Positions 5,578 through 59,073 of a stretch of 64,000 nt of DNA are shown here, piece after piece. Source of the stretch: a virus. The stretch's first letter is position 1. The number at the start of each line of letters is the position of its first letter. The notes beneath the pieces were generated by a model, which was given only the letters and a program-made list of their open reading frames with translations, was not told where the DNA came from and made no database searches. A program made the translations under genes and the position numbers. The stretch is from IMG/VR virus record IMGVR_UViG_3300045988_087184; one strand, 5' to 3'.

Positions 5578-6300
5578 TTAGTGTCTGTTACTTTTCTTTA
5601 TTCCATATTTGTCGCAAATCTCGCAATACGCTCCGTACGCCATTTCGTCTGCCATCTCGTTATAATGGTCGCCGTTGTGGCCTTTTACCCAATGCAAGCG
5701 AACTCCAGCAACGTGGCGAGAATGCTTTTGGTAGAGTTCCCATAGGTCACCATTTGTGTCCGGCTTGTACGTCTTCTCCAGGGTCAGTATGCTATATTTG
5801 CTATCAGTATAAACATCAACACAAGCGCCGTCCGGGCAGGCATTGACCGCAGAAATTATGGCAAGCAGCTCCATACGATTGTTCGTAGTGTTGAGTTGGC
5901 CGTGATTCTTGACTCTAACAACTTCTCCATCCTTGATTAAGACGTAAGCAGATCCACCTGCCTTTGTGGCCGAGTTGTTATCACAGCTACCGTCAGTATA
6001 GGCGATATAGTGCATGCCGTTATCCGGGAACTCCTCTTCTTCTCCGCTTTTTTCTGATACTGATGCTCGTTTGTATGGTTTGCGACCGAATTTTGGAAGA
6101 ACGATGCCATTATAGCATATAACCAGTATCTGCCAGCTCTTTGGAGGGTCGCCGTTTTTCTTCCTCCAACCAACTTTTTGGCAGGTTTTCCACAATTCTG
6201 ATGTGAACTCTCTGTCATTATACCCAAGCTTCAGTGAGCAGAAGTCCTCAAACTCCTCGCGCGTGGGTATAATAATATTATTTTCTTTATCTTTATCCAT
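5578..6300 (-). CDS. rnhA: ribonuclease HI with ~100-aa N-terminal extension
   Basis: DEDD contexts YTDGS, NNRMELLAI, VYTDSKY, HYNEMADEMA. Confidence 0.85.
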   Translation of the reverse strand: MDKDKENNIIIPTREEFEDFCSLKLGYNDREFTSELWKTCQKVGWRKKNGDPPKSWQILVICYNGIVLPKFGRKPYKRASVSEKSGEEEEFPDNGMHYIAYTDGSCDNNSATKAGGSAYVLIKDGEVVRVKNHGQLNTTNNRMELLAIISAVNACPDGACVDVYTDSKYSILTLEKTYKPDTNGDLWELYQKHSRHVAGVRLHWVKGHNGDHYNEMADEMAYGAYCEICDKYGIKKSNRH

Positions 6301-10889: not shown

Positions 10890-10909
10890 TAAGCATAAAA
10901 CGTTTGCTT

Positions 10910-12049
10910 ATGATTTCATACAAATACAAACTCTATCGCACCGATAAGACGAAGCACCTGGATAAGATGCTCCGCGAGGCTGCTTTTGTGTGGAATCATG
11001 CACTCGCGCTACAGAAACGCTACTACCGCATGTACGGCAAATATATCGGCATAAACAGAATGCGTAAGCATTTCGCAAAGCGCATCAACCGAAACCTATT
11101 GCACTCGCAGACGGTGCAGGAGATTCTTGACCGTCTCGATGACGCATATCTGCGTTTCTTTAAGCATCTGGCAGCACGACCTCCAAAGTTTAGACGGGCG
11201 AAGGATTTCTCCTCTTTTGTATTCCGACAAGGAGGTTATTCCATCAACGGGAACGTGCTGACGATAAACAGAATAAAGAAGCGTTTCAAATTCTCGCTGA
11301 GCAGACCTTGCGACGGCAAGGTTAAGACCCTCACCGTCAAGCGCAGTCCACTGGGAGAGTATTTCATCATCATGGTGCTTGATAAAGCCCCTGTCAGCCT
11401 CGGAAAGACACACAATGGTGCATCCGTAGGCATTGACTTTGGCCTAAAGACCTACATGACGATGAGCGACGGAACCACGGTTGAAAACCCGCAGTTTCTA
11501 AAGAGCGGACTGCGCCAGTTGCAGCGTAAGTCGCGGAACCTCTTGAAGTGTGTGCCAGGTTCCCATAACCGGGAACGGAAACGTCAGGATCTCGACAGAC
11601 ACCACGAGAAGGTTGTCAACCAGCGCAACGCCTTCCAGTGGCGGCTCGCCCATCAGTTATGCCGGCAGTACGACCGTATCTTCATCGAGGACCTCCAGCT
11701 CACCGGCATGACAGCCTTGTGGGGCAGGAAGATGAGCGATCTTGCACACGGTGAGTTCGTCACCAAGTTGGAGTACGTGGCTTCCAAGTATGGTGTCATC
11801 GTCCATAAGATTGACCGATTCTACCCGTCATCAAAGACGTGTACATGCGGATATGTAAACAAGCAGCTTCAGCTGAAGGATAGGCAATGGACTTGCCCCG
11901 AGTGTGGCGCAGTCCATAGCCGTGACCTTCTCGCTGCCCAGAATATTCTTCGGCAGGGCATTGCCGAATTGGAGAGCACAAGTAAGACACCTTCCACAAG
12001 GATGGCGCATGTGCGCCTGCATCCAAGAATCTCATCCCTTCAGGGGTGA
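10910..12049 (+). CDS. tnpB: TnpB RNA-guided nuclease (IS605 OrfB family)
   Basis: MISYKYKLYRT N-terminus. RuvC contexts GIDFGLK, IFIEDL, RDLLAAQNI. Zinc finger CTCGY..CPECG. Confidence 0.85.
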   Translation: MISYKYKLYRTDKTKHLDKMLREAAFVWNHALALQKRYYRMYGKYIGINRMRKHFAKRINRNLLHSQTVQEILDRLDDAYLRFFKHLAARPPKFRRAKDFSSFVFRQGGYSINGNVLTINRIKKRFKFSLSRPCDGKVKTLTVKRSPLGEYFIIMVLDKAPVSLGKTHNGASVGIDFGLKTYMTMSDGTTVENPQFLKSGLRQLQRKSRNLLKCVPGSHNRERKRQDLDRHHEKVVNQRNAFQWRLAHQLCRQYDRIFIEDLQLTGMTALWGRKMSDLAHGEFVTKLEYVASKYGVIVHKIDRFYPSSKTCTCGYVNKQLQLKDRQWTCPECGAVHSRDLLAAQNILRQGIAELESTSKTPSTRMAHVRLHPRISSLQG

Positions 12050-13046: not shown

Positions 13047-13108
13047 AATCCTTCATTTTATTGGTTAAACATAGAATCGGTTACCGAATCAGTAACCGAC
13101 TTTTGACT

Positions 13109-13245
13109 AGAATGGCTCCCGGCTGGTGCCTTACTTTAGTAGTTTGATCTGGAGAGCTTTAGCTCGAAGGATTACCTCCAGTAGTAACTGGAGGAGATCC
13201 TCTCGTTGCAGAAGCTCTTGTAAATTACTGCCGAGCCACCATTCT
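13109..13245 (-). ncRNA. small structured intergenic element (~137 nt)
   Basis: Closing helix AGAATGG-CTC / GAG-cca-CCATTCT. Inner helices AGGAT/ATCCT and CCTCCAG/CTGGAGG. An alternative pairing AGAGCTT/AAGCTCT is possible. No ORF. Confidence 0.3.
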
Positions 13246-13275
13246 TAAGGAGGCGAACCTTACATCTTGCTAAGG

Positions 13276-14328
13276 TTACTTCTTACACTTAGCTTTAAAC
13301 CACTCGTTAATCTTTCCCTGGATGTCGATGCCGGACTCCTTGATGAGCTGCTTGAGAACACCGAGCATTCTCCAGCCTTGTCCATCATAAGACTTAGCCT
13401 TAGATTCGAGTTCCTTCAAAGATGCTGCTTCTGACATCTTTCGTCCGCCCTTCAGGAATCTTGCTCCGTGGAACATGATGAGGTTACGCATGGTGTAATA
13501 AGAACCAGAGCCTTTGTATGCGTCAATGAACGCATCAGCCTGCTTGGTATTCCATTCGAGATGCTTGCGGTTCTTGTTGAACTTGTGAACTACTGAATAG
13601 AGCTGCTTGTATGTAGGAACAGCCGCCATCTCGTTCGCAATCTCTCTAAGAGGTGTGTAGACTTTCTTTTCCAAGTCGCTGACAAAGATATCCTTGTTCT
13701 GAAGACGTACGTAAGGATTACCCTTGCAGGTATGCTTGTATGTCTTCTTCTCGTTCCCATCCTTGTCTTTCTTGACATTGTAGATAAGATTGTCATCCAC
13801 GTACTTGCGGAGCTTGCTGATGTAGTCAGTAGCCATGTCGCTGGCAACGTCGCCGTTAAACCATCGGTTTCTAGCACAGACATTGTCAAGGTCTCCGTGC
13901 TCAGACATCTTTACCTGAGCATAGAGTTCGTTCTCCAACATGCGCCACTGATACTCGTAGCCCTTGCGCTGCAATACCTCATTGAACGTTAGCTTGTCTG
14001 TCTCCATCTGTCTGAGCATGTGGAACATCTGCGACATCACCCAGCGGCGGAACAGCTTCCAGTTGCTTACGTATCCACCCTCGACAATCTTCTTGCCTAC
14101 CGCATCAATGGTTGCATCGTCCATATCAACAGGGACCGCTGCACCATTCTCGATCTTGACAAGCTGGTCGTCACCGAGAGGGAAGTACTTACTTACGTCA
14201 ACGCCTGCTGCCTTAAGAGCTTCGAGACGCATCTGCGCCTTTGTCTTCTTACCGGTAGCTGCTGTAGCCTCTACGTTCTTTGTTACGATGTTCAAGTTCT
14301 CACCAGTGATTGTTACAATCTGCTTCAT
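13276..14328 (-). CDS. hypothetical protein (350 aa)
   Basis: Long ORF with the cassette box upstream. Confidence 0.7.
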   Translation of the reverse strand: MKQIVTITGENLNIVTKNVEATAATGKKTKAQMRLEALKAAGVDVSKYFPLGDDQLVKIENGAAVPVDMDDATIDAVGKKIVEGGYVSNWKLFRRWVMSQMFHMLRQMETDKLTFNEVLQRKGYEYQWRMLENELYAQVKMSEHGDLDNVCARNRWFNGDVASDMATDYISKLRKYVDDNLIYNVKKDKDGNEKKTYKHTCKGNPYVRLQNKDIFVSDLEKKVYTPLREIANEMAAVPTYKQLYSVVHKFNKNRKHLEWNTKQADAFIDAYKGSGSYYTMRNLIMFHGARFLKGGRKMSEAASLKELESKAKSYDGQGWRMLGVLKQLIKESGIDIQGKINEWFKAKCKK

Positions 14329-14385: not shown

Positions 14386-14838
14386 TTACGCCCCACCCTT
14401 GTTTGGCTCAATCCAGTCTCTGAGGATAATCAGGTCCTTATCGTTCTTGGAACACCAGAACCACGTTCCCCATGAGTTGTCCCACCAGAGGTTGCCTCTT
14501 AGAAGCTGGACCAGTACGTATAGCTCCAGCTTGCATCGAGCTACCTCTCTCCGCTCTCCGTACATCATATCTTCGTCTGAGAGCTCTTTCTCAGGCAAAT
14601 CCTTGAAGTAGTAGCGGCGATGAGATTCTGAACGCTCAGACGGCACAGAATGCTTGTACGCTGCATATCTCTGCTCGATGCCTACAAATACAACCTCTGG
14701 TGTAAGGTAAGGCGTGTCCTTCGGCTTGTCTTCCTCGGACATTACTACCTTGCCGTTCACTCTACATGTTCTCTTCTGGAAGTTGATGGTGAACTTAGCA
14801 CCATTCTCAACTGCATTAATAATCTCGTCGTATGTCAT
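14386..14838 (-). CDS. hypothetical protein
   Basis: 150-aa ORF with the cassette box upstream. Confidence 0.6.
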   Translation of the reverse strand: MTYDEIINAVENGAKFTINFQKRTCRVNGKVVMSEEDKPKDTPYLTPEVVFVGIEQRYAAYKHSVPSERSESHRRYYFKDLPEKELSDEDMMYGERREVARCKLELYVLVQLLRGNLWWDNSWGTWFWCSKNDKDLIILRDWIEPNKGGA

Positions 14839-14871: not shown

Positions 14872-15126
14872 TTATTCTAGCACTATCAGACTGACTTTTT
14901 CGAGTTCACCGTTACTAAGTACATTATCCTCGTGCCCGAAGTGGATATAGAACTTATCTCCGTTCGCCCACTCCATCGCACGCATATACAGCCAGTGTGC
15001 CTCCTCGATAGAGAATCCGTCTGCGCTTACAGAATCAAGCATCTCGCCCATGCAAACTACGGATTCCAAGTACTCTTTCTTGATTTCATCAAGCTTCTTT
15101 AGTAATTTACTGTCCATAATTCTCAA
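14872..15126 (-). CDS. hypothetical protein
   Basis: 84-aa ORF with the cassette box upstream. Confidence 0.55.
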   Translation of the reverse strand: MRIMDSKLLKKLDEIKKEYLESVVCMGEMLDSVSADGFSIEEAHWLYMRAMEWANGDKFYIHFGHEDNVLSNGELEKVSLIVLE

Positions 15127-16302
15127 TATATTGGTTAATAGGAGTGCGCTCAGAGAATCTGTTGCGTAACTGTAAAGTCTTGATTGATACTGTATTTGAG
15201 TCCTGACTGATCCAGGTAATCACCTGGATGCTCAGGATGATTGAAACAGTATTATACAATCTATTCTCCTTGCGCACCATTCGGCTCGCAATAACCTAGA
15301 CTTATCTCATGTATTATGTTGCATGGATATATGTTCTCGATTAGACCCCGTGTTTGGATACGGTCGTCGATATCGATAGACATCGACGACGGTATTCCAC
15401 TCACGGGGTATTAAACCTCATACTCTTGATAAGTCGTGATGCAATTCACGTTGGTTGTTGTAGGTACACTCATAGGCCTATTGCTTTCCTATAATCAACT
15501 GATACGAACCAGATGGCTTACGCGGGTTAATATTTAACCTAAGGATTAACCCGCGTTATTTGCAAGCTGGTTGGTAAATTACAGCCTCCTCGTGTACCTC
15601 GTTTGGCAATAACGTTGTCTTCATCTGAGAGCGTGACACGTAGCTATAGCAGCTTGATTTGAGAGCTGTTATAATCGCCGGATGAAGCTGGGGATTCCCA
15701 GCATTAGCCGGCGAGTACAACAGGCACTCATAAATTCACTCTCCTCTGAAGACTACCCTCGTGCTTGGGTGATTCTCTGACCGATGGCTCGGCACAATAC
15801 TTTATGTTTCTGATTTGACACAGGATTCGCCAGAATTCAGGATCCAGGTCACCGCTCATATTTATGACGGTTACCAGGATCCAGAACTCTGGTTAAGAGA
15901 CCTGTTGCATAAACTTCAGCCATCCGTCAGGGATTGGTGGTGTGCGCCACCTGTAAAAGTCATACGGACTGACACATTTCTGTACTTCGTTGATGAGTTA
16001 CGCCTTGTGCGTCATACGAGGGCCCCGAGGAGTCTCAAGTTGCAAACTTGGACTACTCGGTTCCCTCAGATGATGTTATAGAGGCGTCGCCTGAATTAGT
16101 CCGTCCTTCTCCTACGTCCGTGTGCTCGGTTACAGAGTCTGCCGGTCGGAAGATACTGCGCATGGCTATATCAGATTGATAATATCCTGGTGGAGAGGAT
16201 CGCAGGACCGTCTCCATTCGGAGACAGGCCCGCGATCGTGCGAGACCGGATGTTTAAAACATTCTTCTTCATTCCGGCAGTTCCTTGCGCTAGGATGCTC
16301 AT
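15127..16302. ncRNA. 1.18-kb ORF-free, highly structured region immediately 3' of the RT gene (strand unresolved)
   Basis: Many perfect helices: 15187-15252, 15346-15408, 15521-15555 (extended by 15507-15512/15567-15572), the long-range pair 15462-15469/15592-15599, 15677-15712 and 16198-16237. No operon-strand ORF. Confidence 0.5.
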
Positions 16303-17568
16303 CTACAGTATATTCACCAAAGTGTTGTACGCTGCCCTGCTCGTTCGCAAGGCATTCTGGGCACAACCGATTGATAGATACCCCTTGATATCGCTCTCTG
16401 TCTTACTCCTGTTGGCTTTCACGTTCCTGCCACGGCCTCGGTCTATACAACCGATAGCCTGAGTCTTTACATATCCGAGACCTCCGACCTTTCTCTTGCC
16501 TGTCTTGACCGCACGGATGCAGTCCATGACAAAGGTGTTGAGCTTGTCGATGTCCTCTTTCACGTTTATGACCGGAAGAACCTGAGTAGCCCAGGAGTAA
16601 TCGCAGTACCCCTTGTAGAGATACCTGTTTACTGCATTGATGGCTTTCGTCATCGTGGTGTCACGCTTCTTTATCGTCCTCTTCTCAATCTCCTTTTGGA
16701 AGGTCTTGATACGTGTGGACGACAGGGAGATATTGTGACCCTTGATTGAATATCCCAAGAACTTGAACCAGTGATTAGCGTCAAGATACTCAACCTTCTT
16801 CGGATTGAGCGTCATCTGCATCTTCTCCAGCTCGCTCTTCAGGATATTCATGGCTTTCTCGTAGTCCTTGCCCACGAAGAGAATGTCATCAGAATAGCGG
16901 ACGTAATATCCGTCCAGATTCGACAACATCTCATCGATATGGTACAGAACCACGTCTGCCAGCCATGCAGCAACAGAGCATCCCTGCTTTAGGGACTGAT
17001 ACTTCTTGCAGAGGTTATTGTTCTCGTCAAAATACAGGTCTGTGTGATAGTAGTCACGAATGACATCTATCAGCGCAGATTTTCCGAATTTCTCCTCTAC
17101 TCTGTCAAATGCCCAATCGACGAATCGTATTGGTACATTGTCAAAGTACTTGGATAAGTCGGACTTGAATCCGATGATTTTTCCCTCTGCTGAGTATATT
17201 ACATGAGAGACATCTTGTACAACACGGCCGCAGCCAATACCCTTTTGGTATGACGTACAGCGTGGATGCACCATCTCTGGCATCAGCTCGAACAGGAGGT
17301 CGTTTGCTATACTCAGGAGGATTCTGTCCACATTTTCATTCACGTAGACCGTACGGAAATCTCCGTTGTCTTTCGGAATCTTTGCTGTGTGTGGCGGCAT
17401 TATCTTGTAATTGCCGCTCTTGATTCTCTGATACATAGCCAGACGAGCCTTCGGCGTAGTCAGCTGATACATTACTGCTTTGTTCATGTCCTTGAATAAG
17501 CCTTTCTCGATAGCATACTGCCATCTGGCTTTCTCGAAGAACATGCTTAGGATTCTGTCTTCATTCAT
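16303..17568 (-). CDS. reverse transcriptase, non-DGR (group-II/retron-like palm)
   Basis: Motifs KIPKDNGDFRTVYV, SYQKGIG, FKSDLSKYFDNV, LKQGCSVAAWLADVVL, YVRYSDDILFVG, LNPKKVEY, FKFLGYSI. Confidence 0.85.
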   Translation of the reverse strand: MNEDRILSMFFEKARWQYAIEKGLFKDMNKAVMYQLTTPKARLAMYQRIKSGNYKIMPPHTAKIPKDNGDFRTVYVNENVDRILLSIANDLLFELMPEMVHPRCTSYQKGIGCGRVVQDVSHVIYSAEGKIIGFKSDLSKYFDNVPIRFVDWAFDRVEEKFGKSALIDVIRDYYHTDLYFDENNNLCKKYQSLKQGCSVAAWLADVVLYHIDEMLSNLDGYYVRYSDDILFVGKDYEKAMNILKSELEKMQMTLNPKKVEYLDANHWFKFLGYSIKGHNISLSSTRIKTFQKEIEKRTIKKRDTTMTKAINAVNRYLYKGYCDYSWATQVLPVINVKEDIDKLNTFVMDCIRAVKTGKRKVGGLGYVKTQAIGCIDRGRGRNVKANRSKTESDIKGYLSIGCAQNALRTSRAAYNTLVNIL

Positions 17569-57895: not shown

Positions 57896-58032
57896 TAAGG
57901 TTAAAAATTATGTATGGGAATCATAACCGCACCTCTTGGTGAAAAATTTAGGAACTCAGAAACGTGTTGGTAGGTATCAGAAATATCGCTGATAGTCGAA
58001 GACTCGGAGTAAGGAAGCAAAATAGCAAAAAG

Positions 58033-59073
58033 ATGAAAAGGATTGGTTATCTCTACGAGAAAATCATATCAATGGATAATCTCAGATTAGCTGACGAAAA
58101 GGCTAGGAAGGGAAAGAGAAATACCTATGGTGTGCGAGTGTTCGATAAGAATAGAGAGGAAAATCTGTTGAAGCTGCATGAGATGCTGAAAAATAAGACG
58201 TTCAGAACATCAAAGTATGACGTATTCACCATCTATGAACCGAAGGAGAGAGTGATATACAGATTACCATACTTTCCCGACAGAATCGTTCACCATGCGA
58301 TACTGAATATCCTTGAACCTATATGGCGCAGCGTATTTACGTACAACACATATAGCTGCATCAAGGGCAGAGGAATAGAAGGATGCGCAAGAAGGGTTGG
58401 TGAGATTATAAGAAGGCATCCTATTGACAGACCTCTGTATTGCTTGAAGATAGACATCGTAAAGTACTACCCTAGCATCGACCATGAGGTTATGAAGAGA
58501 ATTATCAGACGGAAGATAAAGGACGCTGATGTGCTGAATCTTCTTGACGAGATTATAGATTCTACAGATGGATTGCCGATAGGTAACTATTCAAGTCAGT
58601 ATTTGGCTAATCTTTATCTTGCTTACTTCATGCACTGGGTGAACGAAGTGCTGAAAGTCGAGAGTACAGAATATGCAGATGATATAACATTCTTTGCGGA
58701 AAATAAAGAAGTATTGCATAAAGTTCGCAAAGCTATCAAATGCAAGCTCGAAGGAGAATTGAAGCTAAAGATTAAAGAAAATTGGCAGATATTCAAAATC
58801 GGTATAAACAGATACGATAAGAGCGGTCGTGCATTGGACTATGTAGGCTATCAGTTCTTCCGCAAGCAGAAACTTATGCGTAAGAGGACGAAGCAGAACC
58901 TATGTAGGGAAATGAAAGCCGCAAGAAAGAAAGGAATCAAGGAGGATGCACTGAAGATGAGGATAAGCCCTTGGCTAGGGTGGACGGCTCACAGCGATAG
59001 CAGACATCTGTTGGAGAAGATAGGTGCGTTCCACGATATACATAATTATAATTTTAAAAAGATTGCGATATGA
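58033..59073 (+). CDS. DGR reverse transcriptase
   Basis: MKRIGYLYEKIISMDNLRLA N-terminus. Hallmark LPIGNYSSQYLANLYL. EYADDITFF. Confidence 0.9.
   Translation: MKRIGYLYEKIISMDNLRLADEKARKGKRNTYGVRVFDKNREENLLKLHEMLKNKTFRTSKYDVFTIYEPKERVIYRLPYFPDRIVHHAILNILEPIWRSVFTYNTYSCIKGRGIEGCARRVGEIIRRHPIDRPLYCLKIDIVKYYPSIDHEVMKRIIRRKIKDADVLNLLDEIIDSTDGLPIGNYSSQYLANLYLAYFMHWVNEVLKVESTEYADDITFFAENKEVLHKVRKAIKCKLEGELKLKIKENWQIFKIGINRYDKSGRALDYVGYQFFRKQKLMRKRTKQNLCREMKAARKKGIKEDALKMRISPWLGWTAHSDSRHLLEKIGAFHDIHNYNFKKIAI

Follow-up and report, generated by a model that had tools for sequence, protein, structure and literature searches.

A very probably complete UG27 reverse-transcriptase system with eight structured RNA units in a gut Bacteroidota phage or prophage

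Introduction

Why would a phage carry a reverse transcriptase (RT) gene followed by more than one kilobase of DNA without a credible open reading frame (ORF)? This question is raised by positions 15127-17568 of the IMG/VR virus record IMGVR_UViG_3300045988_087184, a stretch of 64,000 nucleotides (nt) which we analyzed as a whole and call the window. An original prediction, made from the letters of this DNA, described there an orphan RT with a densely base-paired region 3' of it, and read the pair as a candidate new RT plus large-RNA module. Our computational follow-up indicates that the locus is very probably a complete UG27 RT system of a gut Bacteroidota phage or prophage, in which the minus strand carries, in this order, the RT, seven non-coding RNA (ncRNA) units, a gene for 84 amino acids (aa), the accessory genes sORF and bORF, an eighth unit, and a terminator-like hairpin. 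It is an already-described system, a canonical UG27 member, and not a new RT-RNA module.

In 2022, Mestre et al. (NAR) placed UG27 in class 2 of the UG/Abi RTs, which also contains UG2/DRT2, UG28/DRT9, and UG17/DRT10 (PMC9226505), DRT standing for defense-associated RT. UG27 was found to be frequent in predicted gut phages of Bacteroidetes and Firmicutes, linked to two protein clusters without known domains, and not enriched in defense islands; a putative structured ncRNA was placed in the intergenic region adjoining the RT, before an accessory gene (PMC9226505). A bioRxiv preprint of 24 September 2026 ('Coevolutionary mining...', 10.64898/2026.09.22.753630) resolves this intergenic region into an array of units of ~150 nt. 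Their lengths peak at 149 and 167 nt, and a further class of 135 nt lacks the pseudoknot. The published unit has a main hairpin, broken by an asymmetric internal loop, as well as a basal hairpin and a pseudoknot; reverse transcription is reported to start at the AUC of an AUC-N7-UANAG motif and to halt after UUYA. Five UG27 systems expressed in E. coli, including those of Alistipes putredinis and Phocaeicola coprophilus, produced single-stranded DNA (ssDNA) hairpins of 50-100 nt as complementary DNA (cDNA), which depended on the YSDD motif (YSDD-to-YSAA mutant) and, in two systems, were abolished by deletion of sORF or bORF. Additional units in nearby intergenic regions were reported for certain loci, and RTs of diversity-generating retroelements (DGRs) for certain genomes (10.64898/2026.09.22.753630).

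Results

The reverse transcriptase belongs to UG27

The RT gene (16303-17568, minus strand) encodes 421 aa with an intact YSDD motif at residues 225-228, as had been predicted, and matches Pfam RVT_1 at E = 1.2e-20. Among the PADLOC profiles, with which we placed the enzyme in the RT clades, RT_UG27 scores 742 bits (E = 3.4e-224) over profile positions 2-419 of 420, and the runner-up groups are UG26 (115 bits), UG17 (92 bits), and Drt9 (89 bits). The RT of the supposedly new module is a member of a group already described in 2022 (PMC9226505) and again in the preprint (10.64898/2026.09.22.753630), whose canonical UG27 criteria (380-450 aa, YSDD) include its length and its YSDD. The enzyme also retains all invariant residues of the family alignment, and shows 66-68% identity to its counterparts in P. 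coprophilus DSM 18228 and A. putredinis DSM 17216. The family is large, with 4,590 clusters matching at E <= 1e-20 and 152 representatives (50% identity level) matching at E <= 1e-30.

We compared the locus with two sets of relatives. IMG/VR contains 404 of them, the best 80 of the 404 having 92-96% RT identity, and 80 close loci were taken from this database. A further 80 diverse loci, with RT identities of 51-95%, were gathered by profile search of genome contigs with a 17-sequence RT alignment, and include those of A. putredinis DSM 17216 (L158) and P. coprophilus DSM 18228 (L109). A copy of the RT, 92% identical and with the same module layout, lies within the complete Segatella copri HDD04 chromosome (L083, 913-931 kb), pointing to Segatella as host and to a prophage or integrated state; Segatella/Prevotella is probably the host genus of this UG27-bearing phage or prophage. 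A megablast search of GenBank phages with the 13.0-17.6 kb region gave no match.

The intergenic region is an array of units

The gap between the RT and the next gene (15127-16302) measures 1,176 bp, and the array that occupies it on the minus strand starts 9 nt past the RT stop codon. None of its 12 small ORFs, counted on both strands, is intact in more than 5 of 15 collinear relatives (0-5/15), whereas the neighboring 84-aa gene is intact in 14/15, which bears out the absence of a credible ORF. The higher GC content noted for part of the region is also real: it reaches 0.50-0.535 at 15.9-16.4 kb, compared to 0.39-0.46 at 15.0-15.6 kb. In this gap we observe six exact copies and one single-mismatch copy of ATC-N7-TANAG, all on the minus strand and spaced by 155-186 nt; a further exact copy occurs 3' of bORF at 13148-13134. 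Over the whole 64 kb and both strands, the motif has 20 matches, compared to 10.7 expected.

The sequences around these motifs share one architecture. Each unit starts with P0, a 3-5-bp hairpin located upstream of the outer stem P1, which is followed by a short internal loop, the stem P2, a purine-rich junction ending in UUYA, and the central hairpin P3. Past P3 come AUC-N7-UANAG, three bases, a 4-5-nt segment, and the 3' strands of P2 and then P1. The P0 loop is complementary, over 4-6 bp, to the bases located 3 nt past UANAG in 8/8 units, and since these loop/segment pairs change from unit to unit, the published pseudoknot is backed by covariation between paralogous units. AUC-N7-UANAG is exact in seven of the eight units, and UUYA stands immediately 5' of the hairpin in seven of eight. 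From P0 to the end of P1, units 1-8 measure 156, 174, 174, 154, 153, 152, 154, and 154 nt, and the central hairpins measure 66-74 or 94-96 nt. The lengths of the units and of their predicted cDNAs agree with the modes (149 and 167 nt) and the 50-100-nt products given in the preprint. Compared to dinucleotide shuffles, the fold energies of the eight segments (~130-150 nt) have z scores of -2.8 to -6.9, with 0-2 of 200 shuffles reaching the native value.

Covariance models locate the units on the RT strand

Given that MAFFT misaligned all sequence 5' of the motif in the eight units, seeds were built with a rule-based parser, which handled 161 of 258 units and was used solely for seeding and length statistics. 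A first covariance model, R1, made from nine units of identical geometry from distant loci only, recovered 190 units from 75 loci, every one of them on the RT strand. The second model, R2, was built from 150 hits outside the window, with distant loci such as A. putredinis DSM 17216 and zero window sequence. Applied to the 64-kb window, R2 gives exactly seven hits, all on the minus strand, between 15146 and 16270 (E = 6e-11 to 9e-4). The strand of the array, which had been left open, is therefore the minus (RT) strand, as the motif array and all covariance-model hits are found on this strand only. Folding energy was uninformative as a strand test (sums of -409.6 and -414.5 kcal/mol).

The homologous loci show the same organization, with regularly spaced motif arrays on the RT strand in the 80 close loci and about 60 distant ones, and with units that covary. 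Among 128 distinct units, 89.9% of the cells are paired, compared to 55% after shuffling and 28-40% with the partners slid, and all 20 pairs are doubly changed somewhere. Of the 122 distinct units examined elsewhere, 119 have the complementarity of the pseudoknot, compared to 76.6 +/- 3.7 under permutation, and the position of the partner peaks 11-17 nt upstream of P1. Orthologous central hairpins are 86-96% paired (slid controls 29-47%), and as many as 13 pairs of a unit are doubly changed. Close to the foot of the central hairpin, two pairs hardly vary in these otherwise diverse units, with C-G in 122/128 and G-C in 119/128 (alignment A6, columns 45/234 and 49/231; L086-L160), which forms a CAG...CUG pattern; this pattern is absent from the motifs named in the accessible part of the preprint (10.64898/2026.09.22.753630).

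The single 1.18-kb fold of the original prediction resolves into seven tandem units, with one more beyond bORF, and no Rfam family is found at the array. At gathering threshold, the only Rfam match in the whole window is RT-17 at 57.9 kb, and at E <= 10 only weak miRNA-like chance hits fall on hairpins at 14.8-17.9 kb.

Anatomy of the eight units

All units lie on the minus strand and are numbered from the RT; P0 loop and pseudoknot segment are given as loop/segment. Unit 1 (16139-16294, GCGCA/TGCGC) has its central hairpin at 16181-16254 and its predicted cDNA template at 16178-16258 (81 nt), with an R2 score of 31.4 bits (E = 1.7e-6, filters off) and a fold z of -3.0. For unit 2 (15956-16129, GCACA/TGTGT), the central hairpin is at 15996-16091 and the predicted template at 15992-16095 (104 nt), and R2 gives 44.9 bits (E = 6.6e-9; z = -3.9). 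Unit 3 (15778-15951, GCACA/TGTGC), with a central hairpin at 15816-15909 and a predicted template at 15812-15913 (102 nt), scores 28-33 bits (z = -4.9), and 13 of its 35 hairpin pairs are doubly compensatory among orthologues.

The central hairpin of unit 4 (15617-15770, GCACG/CGTGT) occupies 15660-15731, and its predicted template 15656-15735 (80 nt; R2 36.2 bits, E = 9.6e-7, z = -6.6). In unit 5 (15462-15614, ATTGC/GCAAT), the corresponding positions are 15504-15575 and 15501-15579 (79 nt; R2 30.4 bits, E = 2.8e-5, z = -2.8). Unit 6 (15299-15450, TTGCA/TGCAA; central hairpin 15342-15412) has a predicted template at 15339-15416 (78 nt; R2 34.9 bits, E = 2e-6, z = -6.9), and the final G of its motif is replaced by U (AUCGAGAACAUAUAU), i.e. 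UANAU. Unit 7, the last of the array (15143-15296, TTGCG/CGCAA), shows UUGUAUA in place of UUYA; its central hairpin lies at 15187-15252 and its predicted template at 15182-15256 (75 nt), and it scores 53 bits (E = 6e-11; z = -6.0).

Unit 8 (13109-13262, GCCT/AGGC) is solitary and lies 3' of bORF, with a central hairpin at 13151-13220 and a predicted template at 13146-13224 (79 nt; z = -5.2). It carries the exact motif, UUYA, and the pseudoknot, and appears as an additional R2 hit at 13111-13243 (18.9 bits, E = 0.002) when the filters are switched off over 7 kb (12-19 kb). In most related loci this post-bORF position is also occupied by a motif, e.g. in L158 at 12344.

The helices listed in the original prediction are all real, and each falls within one of the units. 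The central hairpins of units 7, 6, and 5 account for 15187-15252, 15346-15408, and 15507-15572, respectively; the pair 15462-15469/15592-15599 corresponds to the outer stem P1 of unit 5, and 15677-15712 and 16198-16237 are the hairpin tips of units 4 and 1, respectively. As a whole, the observation was sound and its interpretation held in part; the ~155-185-nt periodicity, the two accessory genes, and the eighth unit (13109-13262) had been overlooked.

Two accessory proteins accompany the RT

The RT is not an orphan, as two genes 3' of it encode proteins that would be the sORF (14386-14838, minus strand, 150 aa) and bORF (13276-14328, minus strand, 350 aa) of the published systems, judging from homology, size, and position. 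We searched the 80 diverse loci by tblastn with the window's neighboring proteins. An sORF homologue lies beside the RT in 68/80 loci, the identity of the window's protein being 52% with that of A. putredinis DSM 17216 and 46% with that of P. coprophilus DSM 18228, and a bORF homologue is found in 64/80, with 39-40% identity to the A. putredinis and P. coprophilus proteins. The 84-aa protein occurs in just 14/80, at times upstream of the RT, and the remaining neighbors tested in at most 8/80. In A. putredinis DSM 17216 the layout is RT, seven units, a 156-aa gene, a 347-aa gene, and one unit, while in Leyella stercorea both accessory genes are upstream of the RT.

Profile searches returned 944 sORF and 993 bORF homologues; among the 120 listed for each, named proteins and Pfam domains are almost entirely lacking, and no listed sORF homologue has a Pfam domain. 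The AlphaFold2 models are confident, with a predicted local distance difference test (pLDDT) score of 86.7 for bORF and 78.1 for sORF, and a Foldseek search of these models against the PDB gave nothing below E = 1 (best E = 1.1 for bORF and 4.6 for sORF). Judging from the models, neither accessory protein appears to resemble a solved fold. An N-terminal CPxCG motif (CxxC) is present in 67/68 aligned bORF-family sequences and absent from the window's bORF, as it is from the bORFs of a few other clades (L086, L087, L088, L119, L142, and L147); a conserved Cys at alignment position 289 is replaced by Ala in the window's protein. In two loci (L141:7998-9650 and L089:2432-4021), the ORF that matches sORF is 550 and 529 aa long, respectively, and opens with the RT N-terminus, which suggests an RT-sORF fusion. 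Such a fusion would fit a physical complex of the RT and sORF proteins.

Outside the UG27 core, the 84-aa gene (14872-15126, minus strand) stands between the array and sORF, and Pfam and PHROG searches with it gave no match. Just past the module, on the opposite strand, is a TnpB/IS605-family gene (10904-12049, plus strand) with OrfB_IS605, Cas12f1-like TNB, and helix-turn-helix domains; since it is found in only 1/80 diverse UG27 loci, it is probably a recent insertion. The RNase HI previously noticed in the same phage corresponds to an RNase HI-like ORF at 5629-6000 (minus strand), 35% identical to E. coli RnhA over 138 aa (E = 4e-13). We may speculate that this protein could aid in removing the RNA template from UG27 cDNAs. 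A second RT of 369 aa (57964-59073, plus strand; Pfam RVT_1 E = 5e-14) is presumably the DGR RT mentioned in the original prediction, and an Rfam RT-17 RNA (57925-58032, plus strand; 55.1 bits, above the gathering score) overlaps the start of its gene.

Evolution of the units

In a comparison of 16 collinear relatives, the central hairpins have a mean nucleotide diversity of 0.236 and the rest of the array one of 0.091, compared to 0.17-0.30 at 4-fold synonymous sites of the RT, the 84-aa gene, and sORF. The templated hairpins drift at about the neutral rate with their pairing kept, and the scaffolds are constrained. The central hairpin of unit 7 has a diversity of 0.12. This unit can be aligned to the array-terminal units of 14 distant loci and has a near-invariant UACAGU/ACUGUA stem base, and the last-unit type can be recognized across genera, including loci whose RTs are only ~65% identical. 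The hairpin of the solitary unit is found in 78/85 close loci.

Two stronger readings of this variation were discarded. In a strict blastn-short search, most close relatives had seemed to lack the inner hairpins, as if these were hypervariable cassettes, and a faster-than-neutral change had been considered. Full-length alignment shows that the arrays are collinear at 80-94% identity, with a diversity equal to that of 4-fold synonymous sites.

It is doubtful, though conceivable, that the units form two functional classes, with the conserved last and solitary units on one side and the inner units, drifting near the synonymous rate, on the other. If so, the system would combine a fixed pair of core hairpins with a freely evolving set, acting by shape as decoys or sponges and not as base-pairing guides.

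Discussion

Expression and proposed mechanism

Family membership, unit anatomy, and strand are what the analysis itself establishes. Expression can be proposed by analogy with the published systems. As stated in the original prediction, the TAnnTTTG consensus is absent from the RT and the array region on both strands; the nearest full Bacteroidetes-type promoter on the minus strand is at about 26.5 kb. A consensus scan gives a terminator-like hairpin with a 12-bp stem (13075-13101, minus strand), which probably ends the module transcript. With no promoter consensus within it and this hairpin at 13101-13075, the module probably extends from 17568 to 13075 as part of a long leftward operon, within which it would be transcribed. 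The pairing of the RT with a structured non-coding RNA downstream was correctly predicted, and their co-transcription would follow from this arrangement.

Each ~150-175-nt unit would then fold as a scaffold, consisting of a basal hairpin, whose loop is pseudoknotted with the 4-5 nt located 3 nt past UANAG, and two outer stems. A complex of RT, sORF, and bORF would begin DNA synthesis at the AUC of AUC-N7-UANAG, copy the central hairpin, and halt after UUYA. In this way, the window is predicted to give eight plus-sense ssDNA hairpins of about 75-104 nt.

Several points weigh against this interpretation. Unit 6 ends its motif in U, unit 7 has no canonical UUYA, and unit 8 scores 18.9 bits. The covariation counts use a model-fitted alignment or a window-derived structure, both of which favor structure. 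Transcription, cDNA synthesis, and product ends are extrapolated here from five other systems in E. coli. Finally, the diversity of the hairpins merely equals the synonymous level, which fits relaxed sequence constraint and proves no function.

Alternative explanations

We consider it very unlikely that the locus is a host-type anti-phage DRT, like DRT2, DRT9, or DRT10, carried by a prophage and using a single ncRNA template to make cDNA in the form of concatemers, homopolymers, or tandem repeats. UG27 does share class 2 with UG2/DRT2, UG28/DRT9, and UG17/DRT10, and prophages often bear defense genes. Nevertheless, the Drt2, Drt9, and UG17 models score 5-15 times below UG27, and the RNA is located 3' of the RT as an array of hairpin templates. 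Furthermore, UG27 is not enriched in defense islands (PMC9226505), and the homologous systems yielded short hairpin cDNAs and no long repeats (10.64898/2026.09.22.753630).

A decayed or inactive copy, in which the RT and array are relics in a phage, might explain the deviations of units 6 and 7 from the consensus motifs, the extra gene between the array and sORF, and the missing CPxCG of bORF. This is highly improbable, as the three ORFs are intact, with YSDD and every family-invariant residue kept in the RT, the scaffold diversity of 0.091 is below the synonymous 0.17-0.30, compensatory changes maintain the hairpins, and the same layout is found in hundreds of near-identical phage contigs.

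The view closest to the original prediction, i.e. a single structured RNA of ~1.2 kb that would form a new class comparable to GOLLD or ROOL and be partnered with an orphan RT, is in agreement with a long, ORF-free, well-folding region in which no Rfam family exceeds its threshold. It has become exceedingly improbable in view of seven units of the same architecture with shared short motifs at 155-186-nt spacing, of the two conserved partner proteins 3' of the RT, and of the existing description of the system; even the sole long-range pair that had been listed is the outer stem of one unit.

The probability that the locus is a group II intron fragment, a retron, or a part of the window's DGR is negligible. 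The closest solved structures are indeed group II intron RTs (91 bits by sequence, none being from UG27), the NCBIfam group II intron RT model TIGR04416 matches the RT at E = 7e-30, and the window holds a second RT with an RT-17 RNA at 57.9-59.1 kb. Against this, the 104 bits of TIGR04416 fall well below the cut-off of 300, the retron RT models reach at most 50 bits (NCBIfam Drt2, Drt3a, and retron models at most 49), no group II or retron msr/msd Rfam match is found at 14.8-17.9 kb even at E = 10, the upstream spacer of the RT is merely 51 nt, the second RT is on the other strand 40 kb away, and the UG27 profile match and the unit architecture contradict it. The earlier exclusion of introns and retrons is therefore upheld, and that of a DGR agrees with the assignment of the RT to UG27 by profile, no search for template and variable repeats having been made around it.

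Comparison with known systems

We observe that the locus shares with the UG27 systems the RT clade, the RT length and YSDD, sORF and bORF, the placement of the array, which precedes the accessory genes and follows the RT on the strand of the latter, the unit architecture with its two length classes, and an extra unit in a neighboring intergenic region. Also shared is the setting in a Bacteroidota phage or prophage whose genome carries a presumed DGR RT. Its layout is identical to that of A. putredinis DSM 17216 UG27, save for the 84-aa insertion. This gene, the bORF without CPxCG, the UANAU of unit 6, and the missing canonical UUYA of unit 7 are the details in which the locus differs.

DRT9 (UG28) and DRT10 (UG17) have the same class of RT and a structured ncRNA that is scaffold and template at once, yet each has a single ncRNA and they are host defense genes. 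Their products are kilobase-long and consist of poly-dA or of tandem repeats; a Tyr or Ser residue in the C-terminal part of the RT acts as primer (PMC12483538; 10.1101/2025.10.16.682844). UG27, in contrast, has many different hairpin templates, short products, and a need for two extra proteins. By analogy with DRT9 and DRT10, priming in UG27 could also be protein-primed. The C-terminal Tyr397 is present in 42/47 UG27 RTs, and both Tyr397 and Tyr414 are frequent and not invariant; Tyr397 is a weak lead for a priming residue.

DRT2 (UG2) resembles UG27 in its class 2 RT and adjacent structured ncRNA template. In DRT2, the ncRNA lies 5' of the RT and cDNA synthesis, primed from the ncRNA 3' end, builds a de novo gene; the Drt2 models give the present RT only 42-49 bits. 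The likeness to retrons is functional, as a retron RT also uses the part of a neighboring ncRNA that folds into a hairpin as template for an abundant ssDNA hairpin of short length, with accessory proteins encoded alongside. Retrons have one msr-msd per RT, located 5' of it and primed from the 2'-OH of a branching G. The UG27 locus differs by its eight templates per RT, the low scores of the retron RT models, and the lack of any Rfam msr hit.

Possible role of the hairpin cDNAs

In the rest of the window, the hairpins have only chance matches of 14-16 nt, in agreement with the preprint, whose authors found no complementarity of UG27 cDNAs to phage or host genomes (10.64898/2026.09.22.753630). 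Because the hairpins keep their pairing but change in sequence about as fast as synonymous sites, and match nothing else in the window, the cDNAs would most likely act by shape on proteins, e.g. as decoys or sponges in phage-host conflict, and not by base-pairing to a target. The short cDNAs may have a role in defense or superinfection exclusion.

The locus adds nothing categorically new, being one among >14,000 catalogued UG27 loci, with near-identical copies in public viral catalogues. Its value is that of a well-annotated example, in which exact positions can be given for the units and their predicted cDNAs (eight of each), for the two accessory genes, and for the likely transcript end. The question that it raises is why many gut phages devote 1.2 kb to RNA templates for short DNA hairpins, and what the partners of these hairpins are.

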